Below, piece by piece: positions 1,421 through 24,404 of a stretch of 35,957 nt of DNA (its first letter is position 1; each line of letters begins with the position of its first letter). The notes under the pieces were generated by a model. The model did not search any database. It had not been told where the DNA came from and saw only the letters and a program-made list of their open reading frames with translations. The stretch comes from Porcipelethomonas sp. GTDB lineage: Bacteria > Bacillota > Clostridia > Oscillospirales > Ruminococcaceae. Where the stretch lies: assembly GCA_051881935.1 (NCBI GenBank), contig JBJEQU010000258.1:1-35957 (forward strand), given 5' to 3'. Both the position numbers and the translations under genes were made by a program.

Positions 1421-4008
1421 TTAATCAGCACCATCTTTTTAATTGTTTCATGTATCTTAATACCAGCAGTTCCATCAGGATTAGACAGACTTTTCCTGCG
1501 GACAAACGCTCTGCTTTCAATGACAGACAGATTATCGGAGGATTTACTTTCAGCTTTGAGATAATTGCACAGATCTGGTATTGTGATAAGATCTTCGGGA
1601 TAATTTGTCTCATCAGCCCTTGAACATGACTCGCTGACCCGAGCAAACAAACTTTGCACCCTTTTTACGAATTCACAGCAATCCCTCATGTCTGCGGCTA
1701 TCTCCTGTACTGACCATTCTGATGTATTTATATCAAATACAACGAGTCGGCTGTATTCAACGCTGTATGCGTATATTTTATCATCGATTCTCTTGGCAAA
1801 TATATATTTTCCATCGTAATCGTTCATTTGATCCGGCATAAGATCATCAAGGAATGAGTGATCCTTCTTATGAATACTACCATCAATTTTACTAACAGCA
1901 ACGACAGAATCTGCACTGTATGGGAATATCAGAAAATCATCTCCGCAGTCACATATATCTGAAAATGTGGAAAGGTCGTTACTTACAGGCAGGCATTCAA
2001 CCGAATGGTCCTCAATGTCGTAAACACAACAATTCCCCCTGAATGGGGATAAGTACAGCTTTTTTCCTTTTTTTAATACGCTATGGAACTGTGCATTGCC
2101 AAAGCCTTCCCTCAACAGGGAAAATTTTTCAGAGACGGTATCAAAAATCATCAATCCGCTGGTGCATATCATTGGCAGATAAATAATTCCATCTGCAAAT
2201 ACACCCTTCCTGAAATAATAATAATCTTCGCAATCGGGGTCTTTTTGAACAAGCTTTACCCAATCCGTATAATATGAGACTTTTTTTTCTTCAGTATCAT
2301 AGCAGATAATGGCATTGTATGCATAGGGAATAAAATAAATCCTATGATCTTTTGTTACAGCTGAGTAGATCTTGCAAGAGTTAAGAATGACAAATTCCCT
2401 GCTTATCCCTATCTTATCAAACAAGCCCGTTATAGGGTCGTATACAGCTATTGATGATGCAGAAAGCGGAGAAAAATATAATTTGCCGTTACATTCCGTT
2501 ATGCCGCTGAACAATCTCTTCCCGTCAATTGGTTCATCAGGAAAAAATCCAACCAGAACGGGCACCGTATCCGTTTTTTTCATCTTGAATAAACCATTGA
2601 AATTTATTGCACTGAACCAGAGATACTCGCCATCATCATATACATCTTCAAAACCTATGTTTATTTTAGCAGATTCATAATCGGTTATTCTGATATTCTG
2701 TAAAAGAATCGGTTTTCCCGTAAGCTGATACAACGCAACAAGTGAGCTCCTGTCACCGTAATATGAATCACTGCAGGCAATCGCCCTGTGCAGATCAGAT
2801 GAATCATCAAAGATCCCAAAACCAGCTCTCTTATACCATTCAACAAGTTCCAGGTAGCTGTTGAGAATATGACTTCTCATTGAGCTGTATGCTGCGGAAC
2901 TCAACGGATGCGGACGCCACCATAAAACCACATCTCTGTGAAGCGAAAAATAATTCAGAACGGAGATAATCTTATTAAGATAATCCTCATTACCATTAAG
3001 AAGGGCTCCGATACTTGTATTATAGAGGATCACTCTTTTATTTCCGATTATCTGCTTCCACTTATCAGGGAGTTTACAAGATCTGTTCTGGGCAGCAGCA
3101 ACAGCGTCGAATTTCGGACTTCCTAAAGATAATATTTTATATTCGGCATTGTTATTGCTATTTCCGAAAGTCTTTACATAGTTTTCGATATACGTCGTTC
3201 TTACCTGATCTGACTGAACGATAATGTGGTCCGAATTAACACAGGCAGGCAATGTGCAAAAATGATCAGGCACCATGTCACTTACAACAAAATACGGGAT
3301 ATACACAAGCTTGTCCGTATATTTTTTCAGTTCACCTGAATAAAACCTCGGGTCAACGCTTGTAACATAGTTGCAATCATCATAAGGATTATGAATATAA
3401 ATCACGTCCGGATGTCTCTGTCTGAGATTATACTTATTATAATGTACAACCGGAACATATTCAGGGAAATCATCTCCCTCGTAATGGCGCTCGTCAAATG
3501 AGTGATCTGGATTTCTGTCATAATAGGGAACAGGTACAACATAAGCGTCACAGTCGGGGTCTTCATCGGCAGCTTTCCACACACTTTCCAATGAATCCCA
3601 CATAGATGCCTTATAAGGCATGAAAACGACCTCAAGTTTAACTTTAATATGGTTTTTCGCACTGCTTTCAGCAGTAATGAGACTTTCATCTATATATGCC
3701 CTGGCACCATCACCATCATACTTCGAAATATTAGCTGCTACTTCATAAAGCGATTTACAATAATCACCAATAAAAGAAATCGTTACAAAATCTTCGCCTT
3801 CAGAGTTTTCAATTATGCCGCCAAGCTGCAAAGCCGTATCCTGACATTCACCAAGCAGCGAAACTGCATTATCATATTTTTCATCGTCCATGTATTCTTT
3901 TATAACATTATGAGCTTCAAAAAGGCTTTTAAATATTTCAAGCAGATTTTCTTTTATCTTTTTCCTCATTTTTCGGGCTCCCAGATTGTCATTATCTTTC
4001 TTATTCAT
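1417..4008 (-). CDS. CDP-glycerol/polyol glycerophosphotransferase-like (TagB/TagF-like) protein with C-terminal beta-propeller-like region; likely start 3969
   Basis: 863-aa ORF; LGSPKFD, LYNTSI, WRPHPL and YYGDRSS motifs; C-terminal half has repeated aromatic beta-strand units; GGAG precedes ATG 3969. Confidence 0.6.
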   Translation of the reverse strand: MNKKDNDNLGARKMRKKIKENLLEIFKSLFEAHNVIKEYMDDEKYDNAVSLLGECQDTALQLGGIIENSEGEDFVTISFIGDYCKSLYEVAANISKYDGDGARAYIDESLITAESSAKNHIKVKLEVVFMPYKASMWDSLESVWKAADEDPDCDAYVVPVPYYDRNPDHSFDERHYEGDDFPEYVPVVHYNKYNLRQRHPDVIYIHNPYDDCNYVTSVDPRFYSGELKKYTDKLVYIPYFVVSDMVPDHFCTLPACVNSDHIIVQSDQVRTTYIENYVKTFGNSNNNAEYKILSLGSPKFDAVAAAQNRSCKLPDKWKQIIGNKRVILYNTSIGALLNGNEDYLNKIISVLNYFSLHRDVVLWWRPHPLSSAAYSSMRSHILNSYLELVEWYKRAGFGIFDDSSDLHRAIACSDSYYGDRSSLVALYQLTGKPILLQNIRITDYESAKINIGFEDVYDDGEYLWFSAINFNGLFKMKKTDTVPVLVGFFPDEPIDGKRLFSGITECNGKLYFSPLSASSIAVYDPITGLFDKIGISREFVILNSCKIYSAVTKDHRIYFIPYAYNAIICYDTEEKKVSYYTDWVKLVQKDPDCEDYYYFRKGVFADGIIYLPMICTSGLMIFDTVSEKFSLLREGFGNAQFHSVLKKGKKLYLSPFRGNCCVYDIEDHSVECLPVSNDLSTFSDICDCGDDFLIFPYSADSVVAVSKIDGSIHKKDHSFLDDLMPDQMNDYDGKYIFAKRIDDKIYAYSVEYSRLVVFDINTSEWSVQEIAADMRDCCEFVKRVQSLFARVSESCSRADETNYPEDLITIPDLCNYLKAESKSSDNLSVIESRAFVRRKSLSNPDGTAGIKIHETIKKMVLIK

Positions 4009-4194
4009 ATACGATATATTATATTATTCGACATAAATCATATTTTTTAAAGACCTGAAAAGTACTTTTTTAAAATATTATCTGTAATTAATCAATTCAG
4101 GTTCAGCCGTGCTGACTTTACTATTTCTTCTGCAGATCCGAAAATTTGCAGCGTTTTGAACGACAGCAGCGATGCCGTAAGACAATATGCAGTA

Positions 4195-4221
4195 ACAAAC
4201 TTATTTTTCCTGCATAGAATA
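4195..4221 (+). promoter_or_regulatory. Possible SigK/SigE-type sporulation promoter
   Basis: AC(4195)-16 nt-CATA gaa TA(4213-4221) upstream of the AGGAGG RBS of the 4257 gene. Confidence 0.35.
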
Positions 4222-4256
4222 ATAAAAAATCCACATTTTTTCAGGAGGCAGGATAT

Positions 4257-4805
4257 ATGTACAGCAGATGCAACTGTAATCAGACAAAGATAAGAAATGA
4301 AATGAGGAAATTATGGTCACAGCATGTCTACTGGACCCGCATGTTTATAATCAGTACTGTAGAGAAACTAAATGATCTGAGTTTTGTAACAGACCGATTA
4401 CTGGAAAATCCCTCAGATTTCTCAATGGCTTTAAAAATGTTTTATGATGCAAAGACAGCAGACAGATTCGGAAAACTCCTTACCGATCACCTGAAAACAG
4501 GCGGTGATCTGGTTTCCGCACTCAATATGAGAAAAACAGAAAAAGCCGATGCATTAAGAGATCAGTGGTACATGAATGCTGACGAAATTTCCTGTTTTCT
4601 GTCATCAGTCAATCCGAATTGGTGCGAGAAAAATTGGAAGGATATGATGCACCGTCATCTGAGTATGACCGAAAAGGAAGCCGGATTCAGAATCAGCAAA
4701 AATTATCCCAAAGATATCGACACATTCAACGCCATAGAAAAAGAAGCACTTGAAATGGCAGATAATATGCCATCGGGAATAATCAGACAATTTTGCTGCA
4801 AATGA
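4257..4805 (+). CDS. Conserved helical Firmicutes hypothetical protein (family often mislabelled 'acetylglutamate kinase')
   Basis: AGGAGG RBS; LWSQHVYWTR...LLTDHL...WYMNADEI pattern; no kinase motifs. Confidence 0.65.
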   Translation: MYSRCNCNQTKIRNEMRKLWSQHVYWTRMFIISTVEKLNDLSFVTDRLLENPSDFSMALKMFYDAKTADRFGKLLTDHLKTGGDLVSALNMRKTEKADALRDQWYMNADEISCFLSSVNPNWCEKNWKDMMHRHLSMTEKEAGFRISKNYPKDIDTFNAIEKEALEMADNMPSGIIRQFCCK

Positions 4806-4919
4806 TGAATATGAGCCTGTACTCACCACTATTCATCTGACACTGTTCCTTACGCCGGCTTATCGGCTAAAAGCTTATACTGATCTCACGAAATTATAAT
4901 TAACATTTTTAAATATATA

Positions 4920-4987
4920 CCATTTACGTCATGCTGCATGCCAATCACGACAATAGTATTGACTTCTTAGCCTGTATCGTCTATCAT
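4920..4987 (+). promoter_or_regulatory. SigA promoter with tandem LytTR/AgrA-type boxes
   Basis: CCATTTACGTCA (4920) and CCAATCACGACA (4941) are 21 bp apart; TTGACT 4959, 17-bp spacer, TATCAT 4982; same geometry as the agrB promoter. Confidence 0.75.
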
Positions 4988-4993
4988 TTTAAG

Positions 4994-5229
4994 CAGGGGA
5001 TGACTGTAAAGAAGACGAGGGAGAATTTATTTCCTGTCATCTCAACGGCAGCGGTCAATAATATCCCGCAGCCGCAAAATCATAGGTAGAATTCAGATGG
5101 CAATATAAAGACAAATTGCTGAGCCACCGGCACAGCTCCCATGAAAACGGTGGGGATATCAGGTAGAATACCGCACAATTATTAACACCTGTCGCTTTAT
5201 GCAGCATCAGTTAATTGTGTGGTGTTTTT
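4994..5229 (+). ncRNA. Putative agr-regulated structured sRNA
   Basis: Lies between the LytTR-box promoter and an intrinsic terminator; stems 4997-5004/5036-5043 and 5046-5054/5066-5074 plus further hairpins; no ORF with a well-spaced RBS. Confidence 0.6.
5168..5229 (+). terminator. Intrinsic terminator formed by MITE-end-like inverted repeat
   Basis: ATACCGCACAATTA ... TAATTGTGTGGTGT followed by a T-run. Confidence 0.65.
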
Positions 5230-5260
5230 CTGCGTATTTTCACGGTTGTCGGTTAAATTT

Positions 5261-5277
5261 TGTCGAAAAATGTCGAA
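5261..5277 (+). promoter_or_regulatory. Tandem Spo0A 0A boxes
   Basis: TGTCGAA at 5261 and 5271 (consensus TGNCGAA), 10 bp apart, ~60 bp upstream of the -35 of the regulator gene. Confidence 0.55.
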
Positions 5278-5334
5278 AAAGCAAGAAAAAGCTCGTTCAC
5301 CCACCCTTATAATAAAAAAACAGAAGAATTTCTA

Positions 5335-5363
5335 TTGAAATATATGCTGTATTATGATATTAT
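5335..5363 (+). promoter_or_regulatory. SigA promoter of agrA/agrC-like genes
   Basis: TTGAAA-17-TATTAT with extended TG. Confidence 0.6.
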
Positions 5364-5379
5364 GGGGACATGAGGTGAT

Positions 5380-6102
5380 ATGATGATCAAAATTGCAATA
5401 TGCGATGATGAAGAGATTGCAGTCGAAAAAATCAACAGGATTATAACAGAATGTTTAGCCGGGTCGGACATTTTATGCGAAAACGGCTTATATACAGATC
5501 CGTTGGAGTTTTTATCCGATTTTAAAACCACCAATTTCCAGGCGCTGTTTATCGATCTGGACATGCCGGTCAGATCCGGATTTGAAATATCCGAAGAAAT
5601 AAGAAAAGTAAATAAAATGATCCCGATAATCTATGTCACAAACAGAGATGATCTTGTTTATCAGGCATTCCGGTACAAAGCTATCGGATTTATAAGAAAA
5701 AATCATGCAAAAGAAGAAATTCCCGAAATATTACCCCAGCTGATAGAAGAAATCAAACTGAATGGAAATGAAATATCGATCACAAACTGCGGAAAACTAT
5801 ACCGGATAAAACCCAATGACATAATGTACATAGTCAGCGATGACCATGACCTGCTCTTTCATCTGAAAGATGTCAGCGAGATAATCAGAACACGAGGCAC
5901 AATAAGCTCCTTTGCAAAGTCATACAATTTTTCAAAATTTATTGCTATCAGTGCAGGCTGCTTAGTAAATTACACATATATTTTCTCAATTGAAAATGAC
6001 TGCATTTACTTAAATAATAATGAAAAATTATACATCCCCAGACGGAAAATTAAAATGGTCAAGGAAAGCTTTTTAAAACTGTCAAGAGGAGGATTAATGT
6101 GA
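5380..6102 (+). CDS. agrA: LytTR-family response regulator (AgrA-like)
   Basis: Receiver IAICDD...FIDLDMP...GFIRK; C-terminal LytTR (DIMYI...CLVN); GAGGTG RBS; adjacent to agrB/agrD. Confidence 0.85.
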   Translation: MMIKIAICDDEEIAVEKINRIITECLAGSDILCENGLYTDPLEFLSDFKTTNFQALFIDLDMPVRSGFEISEEIRKVNKMIPIIYVTNRDDLVYQAFRYKAIGFIRKNHAKEEIPEILPQLIEEIKLNGNEISITNCGKLYRIKPNDIMYIVSDDHDLLFHLKDVSEIIRTRGTISSFAKSYNFSKFIAISAGCLVNYTYIFSIENDCIYLNNNEKLYIPRRKIKMVKESFLKLSRGGLM

Positions 6103-7409
6103 TTTACACTATAGCCGAATGGCTCGCCACGATTTCAGAGAGCATAATTATTTTTTTCTTCTTAATTAAGACCCTGTCGTTCAAAGAGATTTCAACTGTA
6201 AAAAAATACACAGTTACCGCCTCTGCTTTTGTTGTTTACAATGTGCTTGTCCTTATGCTTAACTGGTTTTATACGCTGGAGGGTCTGCTGACGATTTTAT
6301 ATCTGGTCGTACTGACCGTGTATTGCAGACTGGTTCTCCGACGAAAGATCTGGCTCCAGTGTATAACGGTTATACTTGTATTTATGTGCATATACATAAT
6401 TAATATAACTGTTTCCCTGCTGGTTTCAAATATATTGGATATCTCAATCGAACAGGTGATTCTGATGAGAAGTCCTCTGCGTGTTTTCCTGCTTATCTTT
6501 ACAAAAATACTGCTCGTAGTTCTCCTTTACATTTTAGAAAACCTTATATCAAGAGGAAAGATGATGTTCAGCACTGTTCAGTGCGTAGCGATTTTTTTAA
6601 TTCTTCTTATCTCATTTATATCAGGAGTCATATTCCAGAAAAACCAGATGGAAAATGATCTTTCAGGTACTAATTCTATTATCATTACAACATGCCTTAT
6701 TCTGATCAACTGCCTTTTGCTGACTGTTATATATCTTATTGCGTCGCAAAACAACGAAAAACTCAAAAATCATCTGCTGAAAATCCAGATAGAAAGCGAA
6801 AAGAAGAATATGGAAGAATCTGTGATCTGGAACAAAAAGGTTGAGGGAATACAGCATGACATGAAAAATCATTTGGGCTGTGTGCTCGATTTGATAAAAA
6901 ACAACCATTATGACCGTGCTGTCAGATATATCGAAAGATTATCCTCAGAAACCAATGAAAATGCCCCAAGCCATATATGCACAAATCATCCTGCGTTAAA
7001 TGCAGTCATCAACCTTAAGAAAAGCCAGTGCTATGAAAAGAAAATCGGATTCAAGTGCTGTATACCGAATGATCTGCCGGATTTTGACGATGTCGATTTA
7101 TGTATAATTTTATCCAATCTGTGCGACAATGCCATCGAAGCCGAATGCAAGGAAGAATTTCCGATGATCATTCTCAATATATCGATAGTTGGCAATTATC
7201 TTAACATAAAGATGAAAAACAGAATTTCAGAATCCGTACTCCAGGAGAATAAAGCCCTCAAAACCACTAAGAAGGACAAGGAGCATCATGGTCTCGGACT
7301 GATGAGTGTTTGTGAGGCAGTACAGAAAAATGACGGTATGCAGGAATTTTATGAGGAGGAAAACTGGTTTGCAGCCAACATTCTCATTAAAATAAATACT
7401 CTTGCGTAG
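6099..7409 (+). CDS. agrC: Membrane GHKL histidine kinase (AgrC-like)
   Basis: ~6 TM N-terminus; H-box HDMKNHL; N-box NLCDNAIEA; G-box TTKKDKEHHGLGL; GTG start overlapping the regulator stop, GGAGG RBS. Confidence 0.88.
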   Translation: MIYTIAEWLATISESIIIFFFLIKTLSFKEISTVKKYTVTASAFVVYNVLVLMLNWFYTLEGLLTILYLVVLTVYCRLVLRRKIWLQCITVILVFMCIYIINITVSLLVSNILDISIEQVILMRSPLRVFLLIFTKILLVVLLYILENLISRGKMMFSTVQCVAIFLILLISFISGVIFQKNQMENDLSGTNSIIITTCLILINCLLLTVIYLIASQNNEKLKNHLLKIQIESEKKNMEESVIWNKKVEGIQHDMKNHLGCVLDLIKNNHYDRAVRYIERLSSETNENAPSHICTNHPALNAVINLKKSQCYEKKIGFKCCIPNDLPDFDDVDLCIILSNLCDNAIEAECKEEFPMIILNISIVGNYLNIKMKNRISESVLQENKALKTTKKDKEHHGLGLMSVCEAVQKNDGMQEFYEEENWFAANILIKINTLA

Positions 7410-7463
7410 CTTTATTTGCGACTGCCCCGCAATCGGCAGGCAAAATGGCATTTTAAATAAAAA

Positions 7464-7506
7464 TATTGCTCCGCCAATTTGGCAAGGTCTAATTGGCGGA
7501 GCAATA
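7464..7506. terminator. 16-bp perfect hairpin after the kinase gene
   Basis: TATTGCTCCGCCAATT / AATTGGCGGAGCAATA. Confidence 0.6.
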
Positions 7507-7544
7507 ATATTTGATTTAACCCATGCAGCAGGAATTGCACGGGT

Positions 7545-7820
7545 CAGACTGTAGAAAAAACTTAATTTTAGGTTAATTAGGGGCAGCCCTCTCTTACAGG
7601 GCATGCCCCTCTTTTCAAACAGTCCACTGGACTGTTTGAAAATTCACCCTGTGCGGAGCGCCTCCAAGGCAAGGTATTTCGCCCTCTGCGGAGGGCGACC
7701 AAGGCTCCGCCTTTGGAAACCGCAAACTTTTTTGCCAAAGGCATGCACAGCAGAAAAAAGTTTGATCAAAAACTTTAATGTTGCTATCCGCATACTTAAA
7801 ATAACTTTTTCGACAAACTG
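7545..7820. mobile_element. Non-autonomous MITE with IS1182-like ends, inserted in a duplicated palindrome
   Basis: Left end CAGACTGTAGAAAAA, right end reverse complement CAGTTTGTCGAAAAA; flanks 7519-7544 and 7821-7848 are near-identical palindromes; internal hairpins; no transposase. Confidence 0.7.
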
Positions 7821-7863
7821 ACCCGTGCAGCAGGAATTCTGCACGGGTTTTTTACATAAATGA

Positions 7864-7931
7864 CCAATTACGTCATCTCACTATCCATTTACGACAAAGC
7901 CATTGACTCATGGTAATTATATTGGTATAAT
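7864..7931 (+). promoter_or_regulatory. agrB promoter with tandem LytTR/AgrA-type boxes
   Basis: CCAATTACGTCA (7864) and CCATTTACGACA (7885) are 21 bp apart; TTGACT 7903-17-TATAAT 7926 with TG extension. Confidence 0.8.
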
Positions 7932-7954
7932 CGGAATTAAGGAAGGGATGAGCC

Positions 7955-8539
7955 ATGATAACGAGAATAGCCAATAAAATAACCTGCAGCCTGAACAGGA
8001 ACAACATAATTTCCGCTGAAGACAGGGATATATACGTTTATGGACTTGAAATATTCTTTTCTACACTGATAACGATCGCTATCGTTATCAGCTTCGGAAT
8101 CATAATGAACTGCCTTCCGGCGTCACTGATATATTTTGCAGTATTTGCCGTATCAAGACAAATATGCGGCGGATATCATGCGGATACATATTTTAAGTGC
8201 AACACGATCTTTGCTATAACAACATTTCTTGCTCTGTCTGCGTATAAATACGCTCCGGTGGAGATAGAAGGTTCACTGCACTATATGATAATGACATTCT
8301 GGATAATGTCCGTATTTAATTTTGCCCCGGTAGAGAATGAAAGCAAACCCATCAGCAGTGACAGAAGAAAAAAACTCAGGGTAATCAGCCGGGGAATGTG
8401 CATACTCATGGCGCTTGTATCATGCATGATATATATTTTCAGGCTGCAGTATACTGTTTTGCTCGATGCGACAATATTTTTTGTTGCGTTTGCAATAGTT
8501 ATTTCCGGTCTGCAGCAAAAGGACAGCGAAAAAAAATGA
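7955..8539 (+). CDS. agrB: Accessory gene regulator B (AIP-processing membrane peptidase)
   Basis: YVYGLE, RQICGGYHA...C and FAPVENESKP motifs; multiple TM segments. Confidence 0.92.
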   Translation: MITRIANKITCSLNRNNIISAEDRDIYVYGLEIFFSTLITIAIVISFGIIMNCLPASLIYFAVFAVSRQICGGYHADTYFKCNTIFAITTFLALSAYKYAPVEIEGSLHYMIMTFWIMSVFNFAPVENESKPISSDRRKKLRVISRGMCILMALVSCMIYIFRLQYTVLLDATIFFVAFAIVISGLQQKDSEKK

Positions 8540-8598
8540 AAGCATGTCCCTGAAACTGTATCCGGAGATCAGGACAACTTCTTCAATTAATCTGCTCA

Positions 8599-8707
8599 GC
8601 TATTCAGCAGGGTCTGGTGTCTGTACACCTGATCCCTGCATGATATAGATATATATGATCCGTAAATCGGACAAAGAGAAAGGAAGTGACGAAAATGAAA
8701 AAGACAG
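8599..8707 (+). repeat. 109-bp direct repeat, copy 1 (agrD leader hairpin, RBS and first four codons)
   Basis: Identical to 9598-9706 by manual comparison. Confidence 0.95.
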
Positions 8708-8781
8708 CTTCAACAAGAGCTTATATTAATAGCTTTGTTTATGCATATAACAATTCACAACTCGAAACTTTTGAAAGATGA
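8695..8781 (+). CDS. 28-aa chimeric mini-ORF starting with the duplicated agrD start (MKKTASTRAYINSFVYAYNNSQLETFER)
   Basis: Uses the duplicated AAAGGAAG RBS and ATG; its TGA overlaps the RBS of the next gene. Confidence 0.4.
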   Translation: MKKTASTRAYINSFVYAYNNSQLETFER

Positions 8782-8791
8782 AGGTGATCTT

Positions 8792-9589
8792 ATGAAAATG
8801 TACAAAATGCTTTCATTCTTGTTTTCCACTGCAGCGGCCCTATTAATGCTCGAAGGAGTTTCTGTAAATGCGGATGAGTCGGGTTCGGGTGAAAAAAAGC
8901 TGTATTCCTTTGCCGAACTCATGGAAATGAATGATGAAGATTTTTTGAAGCTTGACAAACATGCAACAGACTTATTCTATGATTATCAAGGATATGTTTC
9001 CAATCACAGCTCGGAGGAAGATCGGTTATTGTTCAGTCTGATTAAGCCATCATGGTTAGGTGCTGACAATAATTATATTCCTTACAAAACTGAAAAAGAA
9101 ATTTTATCGTTGTTTGAGGGATATAATTTAGTAATTGAATCTCCTGTCTGGACAAAAAAATCTGTAGACTCTACTACATATTGCCCATACTTTGATTTCC
9201 TTGAAGTGTATATTGGGAATACAACTGTTGATGGTCTTATAGAAATAAAAGAAAAAAGTAATTTGGCTAACCTGACCAAATCGGATATCATGGAATTTGT
9301 TAAATTTGAGTATTGCGTTGATCAGGCAATTGATATGATTTATAACGATCCTGATCTTGACTGGTCAACGGGAAATTCCATAAAATACGGTGATGTAAAC
9401 GATGATGGAATACTGAATGTCAGAGACTGCTCCTATATTGCCACTTGTCTTGCTTCCAAAGAAACGGATAAGCTAAATGACACCGCTGACTTTAACTGTG
9501 ACGGCGAGAAAAATATCCGTGATGCTGCAAAAATGGCACAGTTTATTTTGGGCAGAGATATGTCTCAGCAGGAAAACTTTTCGGTTTAA
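8792..9589 (+). CDS. Secreted protein with C-terminal dockerin; N-terminal domain unknown
   Basis: GAAGGTGA RBS; signal peptide ending VNA; GDVNDDGILNVRDC...ADFNCDGEKNIRDAA duplicated Ca-binding loops. Confidence 0.85.
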   Translation: MKMYKMLSFLFSTAAALLMLEGVSVNADESGSGEKKLYSFAELMEMNDEDFLKLDKHATDLFYDYQGYVSNHSSEEDRLLFSLIKPSWLGADNNYIPYKTEKEILSLFEGYNLVIESPVWTKKSVDSTTYCPYFDFLEVYIGNTTVDGLIEIKEKSNLANLTKSDIMEFVKFEYCVDQAIDMIYNDPDLDWSTGNSIKYGDVNDDGILNVRDCSYIATCLASKETDKLNDTADFNCDGEKNIRDAAKMAQFILGRDMSQQENFSV

Positions 9590-9597
9590 ACTATCCT

Positions 9598-9706
9598 GCT
9601 ATTCAGCAGGGTCTGGTGTCTGTACACCTGATCCCTGCATGATATAGATATATATGATCCGTAAATCGGACAAAGAGAAAGGAAGTGACGAAAATGAAAA
9701 AGACAG
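9598..9706 (+). repeat. 109-bp direct repeat, copy 2
   Basis: Identical to 8599-8707, offset 999 bp. Confidence 0.95.
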
Positions 9707-9828
9707 TAAAGGCAAACGTTCTCGGTGCAGTTGCTAAGATTGCAAGAAAGAGCGCTTCTGCAGGTGCTTCTTCAGCTTCTGTTTTAGGCTTTCATCAGCC
9801 AAAGGAGCCAAAGGCACTGAAAAAGTAA
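9694..9828 (+). CDS. agrD: Cyclic lactone autoinducer precursor AgrD, 44 aa (MKKTVKANVLGAVAKIARKSASAGASSASVLGFHQPKEPKALKK)
   Basis: Manual translation (below the ORF-track cutoff); amphipathic leader and HQPKEPK tail typical of clostridial AgrD; downstream of agrB. Confidence 0.92.
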   Translation: MKKTVKANVLGAVAKIARKSASAGASSASVLGFHQPKEPKALKK

Positions 9829-9840
9829 TTTTCAGAAAAT

Positions 9841-9962
9841 GGACATGCTTCGTTAAAAAATGGAGGTATTGAAGCAGTCCGCAAAAACGGTACATAAGAA
9901 CCTGTCCGCCGAAAGATACGGACAGGTTCGGTGTTACCGCAAAATCACAGGTAGATGCAGAT
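9841..9962 (+). ncRNA. Structured agrD 3' trailer related to the 4994-5229 RNA
   Basis: Stems 9841-9852/9870-9880 and 9888-9939, followed by CAAAATCACAGGTAGA. Confidence 0.45.
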
Positions 9963-9991
9963 ATTAAACAAACATAAAGAAAGAAAAAACT

Positions 9992-10035
9992 AAAAAAGCT
10001 TTGACGCTGATCAGATTCAGAGTCAAAGCTTTTTT
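9992..10035. terminator. Bidirectional intrinsic terminator between agrD and ilvE
   Basis: AAAAAAGCTTTGAC ... GTCAAAGCTTTTTT. Confidence 0.85.
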
Positions 10036-10060
10036 ATTTCACAGTCATATACGATATGAC

Positions 10061-11128
10061 TTACTTTACTTCTCTTATCCAGCCGAATTCATCAGGGATC
10101 TTACCCCACTGGATACCGGTCATGGTATCATAGAGCATCTGTGAAACAGTACCGATCTTATTATCGTTTATCTCCATGATCTTGTCTTCCCACTTGAGAT
10201 GACCAACCGGGGAAATTACCGCTGCCGTACCTGTTCCGAACACCTCGTCAAGCTTGCCGTTGTCGTATGCATCGGAAACTTCCTGAATAGTGATCTTTCT
10301 CTCCGTTACCTTGTATCCCCTGCTGCGGCATACTTCAATAGCGGACTTTCTTGTAATGCCCGGAAGAACGGAGCCTGTAAGCTCAGGGGTGATAACCTCT
10401 CCGTCAATTACAAAGAAAATGTTCATTGATCCGACTTCCTCTATGTACTTTCTCTCAACACCATCGAGCCAGAGAACCTGTTCATAATCCTGCCTGTGAG
10501 CCTCATCCTGACCGGCAAGGGAAATAGCGTAATTCGCCGCTGTTTTTGCAAAGCCGGTACCGCCTCTTACCGCTCTTACATAGTTTGTTTCAACATAGAT
10601 CTTTACCGGATTAAGACCGGTTGAATAATAAGCACCGGAAGGCGAAAGGATTATCATAAACAGATAATGGTCAGCAGGACGAACCCCTACATAAGGATCT
10701 GTCGCAATAATAAACGGACGGATATAAAGTGCTGTTCCGTCAGAATGGGGAACCCAGTCCTTTTCGATCTCAAGAAGCTTCAGCAGTCCCTCAAGACAGT
10801 CCTCCTCATTGATTTCCGGAATGACCATTCTCTTGTTGGAAACGTTAAGTCTTTTAAAGTTTTCATCCGGACGGAAAAGCTGGATATTTCCTTCCGCTGT
10901 ACGGTAAGCCTTGAGTCCCTCAAAGACCTCCTGACCATAGTGCAGGCACATTGACGCCGGAGAAAGAGTGATGTTCTGATACGGAACGATTCTCGCATCA
11001 TGCCAGCCCTCACCGGTATCGTAATTCATGATAAACATGTGGTCAGTAAAAATGTGACCAAATCCAAGTTTCGATTCATCTGTCGGCTTATCCTTTAGTG
11101 TTTTAGCCAGTTCAATTTTGATGTTCAT
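10061..11128 (-). CDS. ilvE: Branched-chain amino acid aminotransferase
   Basis: LHYGQEVFEGLKAY, LYIRP, PLP lysine AKTAANY, EEVGSMN, LPGITR, GTGTAAVISPVG. Confidence 0.96.
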   Translation of the reverse strand: MNIKIELAKTLKDKPTDESKLGFGHIFTDHMFIMNYDTGEGWHDARIVPYQNITLSPASMCLHYGQEVFEGLKAYRTAEGNIQLFRPDENFKRLNVSNKRMVIPEINEEDCLEGLLKLLEIEKDWVPHSDGTALYIRPFIIATDPYVGVRPADHYLFMIILSPSGAYYSTGLNPVKIYVETNYVRAVRGGTGFAKTAANYAISLAGQDEAHRQDYEQVLWLDGVERKYIEEVGSMNIFFVIDGEVITPELTGSVLPGITRKSAIEVCRSRGYKVTERKITIQEVSDAYDNGKLDEVFGTGTAAVISPVGHLKWEDKIMEINDNKIGTVSQMLYDTMTGIQWGKIPDEFGWIREVK

Positions 11129-11537: not shown

Positions 11538-11752
11538 AGAAAATCTGTTTCCCGGTGACGGTGCAGACGGTTTTCTGAAAGCATTTGTGAAAGTGTCAGC
11601 GGTTCCTTTCCGAACCGTAACAATTCCGAAATATAGGTGTGCGGGCCCTGTGCAATGGATCACCGTGAACCATGTCAGGCGGGGAACCGAGCAGCATTAA
11701 GCGGATCGTTCTGTGTGCCGCAGCAAGCCTGCACACCTATGTTCCGGAATTT
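11538..11752 (+). ncRNA. ffs: Signal recognition particle RNA (large type with 5' extension)
   Basis: Helix-8-like GTCAGGCGGGGAACCGAGCAGC; long stem AATTCCG..ATAGGTGTGCGGGC / GCCTGCACACCTAT..CGGAATT; canonical position upstream of dnaX; ends approximate. Confidence 0.9.
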
Positions 11753-23505: not shown

Positions 23506-24404
23506 TTATTCAGTTATTTTACCGGCAAGCTTATAAGCAAGTGCTGCCGCATCTCTTATATTGATCTTTCCGTCGCCGTTAAAATCAGCCGTTTCCGGAA
23601 GCTCCTGACTCCTTCCCTCTGCAAGCATTTGAGCAATGAACGCACAGTCACGGACAGTATACTCTTCCGTCTGTTCCTGTTCCGGGTCGGATACTGTTAT
23701 TGAAACGGTGGTGGATGTCGTTTCCGGAGAAGTTGTTACAGGGGCAGTTGTTGTGATCTCAGGCTCTTCAAAATATTGTTTAGTTGCCGAGACAGATGTC
23801 CTGCTAACATGCATACCATACTCCTTATACAAACTTAAAAAAGCCGAGACTATATCTTCTTCAGTTGCATCTTCATCGTAACAGATATGAAAATTCTCAT
23901 TGCCATCATCTTCATATGGTTCGAAATGTGCCTTCATATTTTTCTCATCGAGAAAATCATTCAGTTCATCAACAGAATGATTCTTATAGAACATTTCATC
24001 TGTAGAATAAACCCTGTTCCAGGTTATAATAACACCGACAAGAACTCTGGCTTTTTTCAGATCTGGCTTTACCTCCTCTTCCTCATCAAATATATATTCT
24101 CTGGACAAGAGTCCAATATCATTAGGGGTTATGAATTCATCGGTATGATAAGAGTAAACATGCTTTAATTCTACAGCATCATAACCGTCAAAGTTAACCG
24201 TATTATCATTAATATACTCAACGAATTCCTGCTCATAGGGAAGTACATGGTCTAAAGAATTCACCAATTCCCTGTTTTCCTGATTATTAAAATCACAGGT
24301 AGGCATCGACGATCCCGACGCAGAAGCAGAAACGCCTAAAACCACAGACGATAGTAACAGTAAGTTAAGTATCACACTGCCTAATGTTTTTTGATTTTTT
24401 TCAT
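23506..24404 (-). CDS. Secreted protein with Thr-rich linker and degenerate dockerin; ATG 24404 is out of frame by one base in an A7 tract (intact frame from GTG 24375)
   Basis: TVRDCAFIA...ADFNGDGKINIRDAA; GGAG-ATG then AAAAAAA; adding one A gives MKKNQKTLGSVILNLLLL. Confidence 0.75.

Follow-up and report, generated by a model that had tools for sequence, protein, structure and literature searches.

The agr locus and its surroundings

The window analyzed here, a 35,957-nt stretch of Porcipelethomonas sp. DNA, lies on contig C258 of G000, an uncultured assembly (2.43 Mb, 290 contigs, 89% complete) with 95 dockerin matches and a spo0A gene, in keeping with a Ruminococcus-like firmicute; other G and L labels denote genomes and loci of relatives. 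Genes for a response regulator with a LytTR domain, a GHKL kinase, AgrB and AgrD are found together on this contig, all on the plus strand. The regulator (5380–6102; receiver and LytTR domains, hereafter the 5380 protein) and the membrane kinase (6099–7409) were recognized by domain matches and are called AgrA-like and AgrC-like because they do not reach the NCBIfam equivalog cut-offs for AgrA and AgrC. They are followed by agrB (7955–8539; PF04647), a dockerin protein gene (8735–9589, by domain match) and agrD, encoding the autoinducer peptide precursor (9700–9828; TIGR04223, 47.7 bits, cut-off 19). The 3′ trailer of agrD (9829–10039) comprises a hairpin, a 19-mer discussed below and a palindromic terminator (9988–10039). 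A promoter scan placed agrA's own promoter, without boxes, at 5335–5363 (TTGAAA-17-TG-TATTAT), where it aligns with that of the agr cassette L015 of G442.

Several further features of the locus were recorded. The dockerin gene, an insertion that separates agrB from agrD, is flanked by a 138-bp direct repeat (8570–8707 and 9569–9706, 92%), which duplicates the agrD ribosome site and first codons and has no further copy in G000; in L015, by contrast, the two agr genes are direct neighbours. A MITE-like palindromic repeat of about 280 bp (7540–7822), with more than 20 related copies in G000, separates agrC from the agrB promoter. A tandem of TGTCGAA at 5261 and 5271 (5261–5277), upstream of the agrA promoter, resembles the Spo0A box consensus; such tandems also occur at 4027 and 7809, and there are five in G000. 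The sole Rfam match in the window at gathering score is an SRP RNA (RF00169) at 11639–11737. Upstream of the agr genes, a 182-aa gene (4257–4805) has no Pfam family and is present in three of 21 genus genomes; two close homologues have other genes downstream, not agr. A minus-strand dockerin gene at 23506–24404 has an SD-preceded ATG at 24404 that is out of frame with the remainder within A-runs, which may reflect a pseudogene, slippage or an assembly error.

A second agr-type system of G000 is located on contigs C230 and C101, beside mobile-element genes. It is accompanied by an integrase that shares 88% identity with the one in the G442 cassette, and several related integrases are encoded on other contigs. 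The G442 cassette itself (L015, on G442:C22, titled Alistipes) is of clostridial type and carries integrase and relaxase-like genes; its label or binning looks doubtful.

Boxed promoters and their candidate regulator

A boxed promoter stands at 4920, upstream of agrA. Its tandem LytTR-type boxes (4920–4952, plus strand; box 1 CCATTTACGTCA at 4920–4931, box 2 CCAATCACGACA at 4941–4952) have a 21-bp period and precede a sigma-A-type promoter, TTGACT-17-TATCAT (4959–4987; TTGACT at 4959, TATCAT at 4982), from which transcription would start near 4993–4995. Boxes and promoter are undecayed. A second such promoter (7864–7931, plus strand) lies ahead of agrB, with boxes at 7864 and 7885, TTGACT at 7903 and TATAAT at 7926. 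Both sites share the layout box-9-box-6-TTGACT-17-(−10), and they are the best sigma-70-type sites among 32 in 4000–10100 (11/12 for one; that at 4920 is one of six at 10/12). The consensus is a pair of CCAWTYACGWCA at a 21-bp period, in which TTGAC lies 18 bp past the first base of box 2 and is separated from the −10 box by 17 bp. This shared architecture had been proposed in the first-pass annotation, and all its coordinates were reproduced. Promoters activated by LytTR proteins of the AgrA/VirR type are characterized by a pair of direct repeats, spaced by about 21 bp, that immediately precedes the −35 element.

To chart the pattern beyond the window, all 290 contigs of G000 were scanned on both strands for the box pair, at spacings of 20–22 bp and with up to four mismatches. 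The scan returned four pairs, each with no mismatch and a 21-bp spacing, and in each case TTGAC stands at +18, with a −10 box 17 bp beyond it; there were no near-misses in 2.4 Mb, and the reversed pattern gave no match in G000. The pairs at C131:6553 and C139:8756 constitute an independent test of the pattern, because neither was used to make the consensus.

Among relatives, the pattern was found in two of 21 genus genomes and two of 400 family genomes; two of 400 order genomes also matched, one being the already detected G168 and the other, G749, looking like a chance match. It further occurs in G442 (L015), whose regulator is 60% identical to the 5380 protein, and the same box pair is present in L016, whose record title reads uncultured Ruminococcus. 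The boxes also precede agrB in the two related agr cassettes of G442 and G191. Metagenome contigs yielded four matches, none with promoter geometry, and viral contigs 35, of which only that in L051 is promoter-like; AgrA had no match in viral contigs. L051 is an IMG/VR contig in which a similar box pair, at position 1501 behind an amidase-like gene, has TTGATT at +18 and a sequence resembling a −10 box.

Altogether 12 boxed promoters were collected, and the 11 not cut by a contig end were examined for a ribosome site and start codon. Seven drive intact genes beginning 23–79 nt downstream: agrB in G000, G442 and G191 (the last judged by eye, its contig ending soon after), secreted-protein genes in G002 and G005, and a gene for a Cache/HAMP protein in G168. 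The secreted products carry dockerin domains in G002 and at G005:C83, and that of G005:C255:530 is truncated by its contig end. Two promoters stand over decayed genes, C139 in G000 and G005:C255:2059 (a single box). The remaining two, C258:4920 and C131, both in G000, are ORF-less, i.e., followed by no ribosome site with a start codon.

Both G000 sites outside the agr locus have additional features. At C139:8756 (minus strand; L011), a start that stops after four codons is followed by a protease-like fragment, recognized by eye, and then by dockerin-protein genes. The C131 promoter (6553–6340, minus strand; L009) is 84% similar to the agrB promoter across 45 bp. Downstream of it lie about 135 nt that contain an 18-bp hairpin (z −4.4) with a CU-rich loop, and beyond these a repeat found genus-wide and a terminator that faces gpsA. 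No copy of this hairpin part was found in 21 genus genomes. The C131 transcript is possibly a better sRNA candidate than that of C258; no likeness and no mutual pairing were detected between the two.

G000 encodes two LytTR proteins and has two copies each of agrB and agrD, and the second agr set (C230, C101) has no such boxes. The closest regulators to the 5380 protein are 54–61% identical to it. All four aligned LytTR proteins of box-bearing genomes (G000 C258, G442, G005 and G191) have in their C-terminal domain I-x-I-[SG]-[AS], where IRxH.[RS]Y is usual, together with [PS]RR[KR]; these four are relatives and represent the signature of one clade, not four events, and the regulators of box-bearing G002 (64% complete) and G168 were left out of the comparison. 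The signature occurs in none of seven others, G000's second LytTR protein included, the absence of boxes being checked separately. A cognate regulator is present and co-varies with the box (4/4 vs. 0/7), and this tracking points to the 5380 protein, rather than the second LytTR protein, as the likely reader of the boxes. Our confidence in the assignment of promoter and regulator is high.

A candidate RNA between the boxes and agrA

Downstream of the 4920 promoter, the plus strand may encode a noncoding RNA of about 237 nt (4993–5229), with predicted hairpins at 4997–5043, 5046–5074, 5118–5136 and 5137–5155. Directly 3′ of the second hairpin lies a 19-mer (5072–5090), predicted to be single-stranded, that recurs with 18 of 19 positions identical after the hairpin of the agrD trailer (9937–9955). 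Ranked by E-value, the best Rfam hit to 4780–5400 had E 0.2, below gathering score, so that no Rfam family matches. There is no Shine-Dalgarno sequence with a start codon between the −10 box and agrA, and the six-frame hexamer scores of the region (−0.48 to −1.01) are those of intergenic DNA (median −0.85; gene median 0.41). An ORF-less transcript from the boxed promoter is plausible. The first-pass annotation had seen no credible coding sequence here, and this holds with one borderline exception: a 29-codon frame at 5000–5089 has a coding score of −0.11 (gene 5th percentile −0.06; intergenic 95th percentile 0.06). It starts about 6 nt past the predicted transcription start, too close for a ribosome site to fit, and is probably untranslated.

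The same frame underlies one alternative, namely that the transcript is the mRNA of a 29-residue peptide translated from a near-leaderless start, or else is antisense to a minus-strand frame at 5080–5178. The peptide has an ATG at 5000 and its borderline score in its favor, but the ATG is predicted to be buried in the hairpin 4997–5043, no SD spacing is available and no credible homologue was found among 1.84 billion representatives. As for the antisense variant, the minus-strand frame has an SD-like AGGTG 7 nt before a TTG, and SpoZ, antisense to CD16671, offers a precedent; against it, no minus-strand promoter is listed in 5230–5380 and the minus-strand hexamer scores are intergenic. We regard this alternative as very unlikely. 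In that search, the peptide 4931–5086 gave a lone phmmer match, which was rejected as repeat-summed, its best stretch scoring 9.3 bits.

Folding of the region exceeded that of shuffled sequences (z −3.17 or −2.72 in two runs). However, 41 of 138 random 240-nt intergenic windows reach z ≤ −2.7, a background sampled from 351 intergenic regions whose crude gene calls mean that repeats and real RNAs are included. The proposed hairpins thus stand out against shuffles but not against intergenic DNA. For the 5′ 174 nt, z is −1.25 on the plus strand vs. −2.74 on the minus strand. The strongest element is a 3′ stem, 5165–5181 with 5212–5228 (17 bp, pairing probability 0.9), enclosing a 30-nt structured loop and followed by five U, four of which are themselves paired in the stem. 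It had been taken for a terminator, and the stem and U-tract are indeed there, but the terminator scan has no listing for 5165–5229; a non-canonical terminator is plausible under the folding model. On read-through, the stem would extend to 5146/5247, and in a strand-neutral alignment this extended stem has 10 G-U vs. two A-C pairs (p = 0.019, one post-hoc test), an excess that favors a plus-strand RNA.

The main alternative is that the promoter is an orphan, having once driven a regulon gene, probably for a secreted dockerin protein, since deleted or decayed. The 240 nt would then be leftover DNA, and the hairpin would merely insulate agrA or end the transcript of the upstream gene 4257–4805, which lacks the clean terminator seen by eye in its G010 and G011 homologues. 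The boxed promoters over decayed secreted-protein genes, C139 and G005:C255:2059, provide a model for such a fate, the transcribed part is not conserved, and the frame 5000–5089 (score −0.11) is basic and then hydrophobic, like a worn signal peptide. Yet its likeness to dockerin N-termini and signal peptides is equalled by 49 of 400 control frames and, unlike in the two decayed cases, there is no ribosome-site remnant at a usable distance. A six-frame comparison with the genome and the retrieved loci revealed no protein remnant, and the 1.84 billion representatives contained no credible one; moreover, neither the boxes nor the promoter show decay, and the 3′ hairpin has a G-U bias. We consider an orphan promoter unlikely on balance.

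A further alternative is feedback in cis, in which the boxed promoter works by read-through past a leaky terminator into agrAC, either adding AgrA once the 40-bp hairpin has been processed, or damping it by an untranslatable transcript that occludes the agrA promoter. The boxed promoter is co-oriented with agrA and about 390 nt upstream of it, the U-tract is weak, and the stem reaches 5146/5247 only upon read-through. In the read-through transcript, the agrA SD and start would be buried by an anti-SD arm at 5293–5314 (predicted helix probabilities 0.94–0.99), while in a transcript from agrA's own promoter the SD is predicted to be mostly open. Since agrA has its own conserved promoter and read-through would bury its SD, the boxed promoter does not appear to be built to boost AgrA. 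Nor would feedback in cis account for the ORF-less promoter on C131, where the gene ahead is convergent; related cassettes have no boxed promoter upstream of agrA, and the SD-pairing arm sits in a spacer inherited from a mobile cassette (see below). We judge this alternative improbable.

The preferred reading is that of a young, lineage-specific, AgrA-activated, separately terminated and trans-acting sRNA, to which we give slightly less than an even chance. Judged by sequence alone, the segment has its own promoter and no translated ORF, as a trans-acting sRNA does; whether 4993–5229 is a functional RNA is a coin-toss. By analogy with these protein families, at high cell density AgrB would mature AgrD and AgrC would phosphorylate the 5380 protein, which would bind the tandem boxes at 4920–4952 and switch on the noncoding RNA of about 237 nt. 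The transcript would end near 5229, at the 5165–5229 hairpin, and the RNA would likely act in trans by base-pairing to mRNAs. Conjecturally, the unpaired A/G-rich stretch 5075–5117, which holds the 19-mer shared with the agrD trailer, might serve as its pairing region, and its outputs might be secreted dockerin proteins, the class that is under direct box control elsewhere.

Origin, targets and relation to known agr-type RNAs

The transcribed part had no homologue in G000 itself, in 60 relatives (the one match there covers the promoter only), or in plasmids, phages and viral contigs. The match of the 19-mer between the RNA and the agrD trailer is not equalled by shuffles (local score 42, 0/300 as good); with up to two mismatches, the 19-mer is absent elsewhere in 22 genus genomes and in viral contigs. 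We also compared the RNA with agrD and with other leaders of the regulon; an origin as a decayed copy of either was rejected, the 19-mer being the sole shared part.

A boxed promoter upstream of agrA is lacking in the three nearest agr cassettes examined (G442, G191 and G005); in G442 and G191 that position is taken by an integrase. The segment 5228–5380 of the window, including the agrA promoter, the TGTCGAA tandem and the anti-SD arm, aligns with the integrase-to-agrA spacer of the G442 cassette (score 92, 0/300 shuffles as good). A decayed integrase as the RNA's origin found no support, as 169/300 and 41/300 shuffles score as well. Since the spacer aligns but the integrase shows no alignment to the RNA region, the promoter and RNA appear to stand where the mobile agr cassette has its integrase.

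Targets were sought with a home-made predictor, based on seed and accessibility, over 1968 start regions. The top-10 mean target energy of −16.5 kcal/mol was better than in 14 of 14 shuffles; with its own contig excluded, the value was −15.9, and 10 of 22 real intergenic controls were equal or better. These controls derive from 23 of 85 intergenic windows, one having been dropped for overlap with the RNA itself. No target of the candidate RNA thus rises above intergenic controls among the 1968 start regions. A 14-bp complement of the 19-mer lies in a dockerin gene at 24289–24302 (minus strand); as one of seven non-self 14-bp complements genome-wide, it is anecdotal.

The first-pass annotation spoke of a quorum-controlled regulatory RNA. 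The agr locus, the boxes on agrB in related cassettes and the tracking regulator signature support the regulatory half of this reading well, but the missing homologue, folding at intergenic background, lack of a supported target and boxed promoters over decayed genes in the same regulon weaken the case for a regulatory RNA. The broadest reading, which we rate as improbable, combines these observations. Here, a mobile agr cassette was domesticated and its integrase replaced by a quorum-driven RNA gene, and the C258 and C131 transcripts would be two unrelated newborn sRNAs forming half of a four-promoter regulon. The hairpin plus 19-mer, present in the RNA and the agrD trailer, would be a shared seed that tunes secreted dockerin proteins by density.

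The element resembles known systems at the promoter level and is a member of none of their RNA families. RgaR of Clostridioides difficile and VirR of Clostridium perfringens are both LytTR proteins. According to PMC10602386, agrB1D1 and the sRNA SpoZ are both activated by RgaR through VirR-like repeats with key G residues 21 bp apart; RgaS and RgaR are orphans, and RgaS does not sense AgrD1. SpoZ is described there as about 528–560 nt long, conserved across the species and antisense to a 58-aa ORF. A regulator whose boxed promoters drive agrBD plus an sRNA is thus a design already known from RgaR. The two systems share a single response regulator, 21-bp direct repeats beside the promoter, and a regulon of few promoters that includes agrBD and an ORF-less intergenic site. 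Unlike RgaS-RgaR, the kinase and regulator here are encoded together with agrBD, the boxes have a sequence of their own, and the RNA, seen in one genome, is the shorter of the two. In C. difficile the regulator of the boxed agrBD promoter is not responsive to the AgrD peptide, so quorum induction of the boxed promoter here is an inference.

In C. perfringens, PMC2838878 places VirR boxes just upstream of the −35 element, driving VR-RNA, VirU and the strain-restricted VirT, with virT present in two of eight strains. Compared with that source and PMC4691137, our element likewise has two imperfect direct repeats directly 5′ of the −35, and in the VirR regulon, too, a single regulator governs several RNAs as well as secreted enzymes, the strain-restricted virT resembling the patchy RNAs found here. 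There is, however, no sequence match; VR-RNA is 386 nt long with known toxin targets, whereas the regulon here comprises dockerin-bearing proteins and agrB. With S. aureus RNAIII, as described in PMC3673130 and PMC4691137, the candidate has in common an ORF-poor transcript adjoining agr genes and boxes shared with the agr biosynthesis promoter. RNAIII is divergent from P2, folds into 14 hairpins, carries UCCC motifs in loops and contains hld; the candidate is co-oriented and upstream of agrA, with about five hairpins, UCCC tracts mostly in stems and no Rfam match. The initial label of RNAIII-like fails if RNAIII or VR-RNA itself is meant: neither these nor any other Rfam family matches at gathering score, the RNA does not diverge from the agr operon promoter, and it embeds no hld or other credible coding sequence. 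Like FasX of S. pyogenes, it would be a small RNA beside the gene of an AgrA-like activator; by the same sources, FasX pairs through CU-rich loops, unlike the A/G-rich free stretch here, and Fas has no known peptide signal.

RNA effectors of agr-type systems have been described in pathogens (RNAIII, VR-RNA/VirT/VirU, FasX and SpoZ). A literature search that lacked most subscription papers found no agr-controlled RNA for a Ruminococcus-like organism, and a rumen review reports agrA/agrB in 199 genomes with limited evidence on function (PMC10838665). The candidate, seen in one uncultured, 89%-complete assembly, is a putative addition to these effectors. What stands more firmly is the regulon itself, in which a new LytTR box, matched by a regulator signature, drives agrB and secreted dockerin proteins in several genomes. 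If the RNA is real, the design would extend to a fibre-degrading commensal, linking cell density to the dockerin secretome. If the broadest reading given above is also true, this would be the first quorum-sensing RNA effector in a cellulosome-type commensal, caught at birth.
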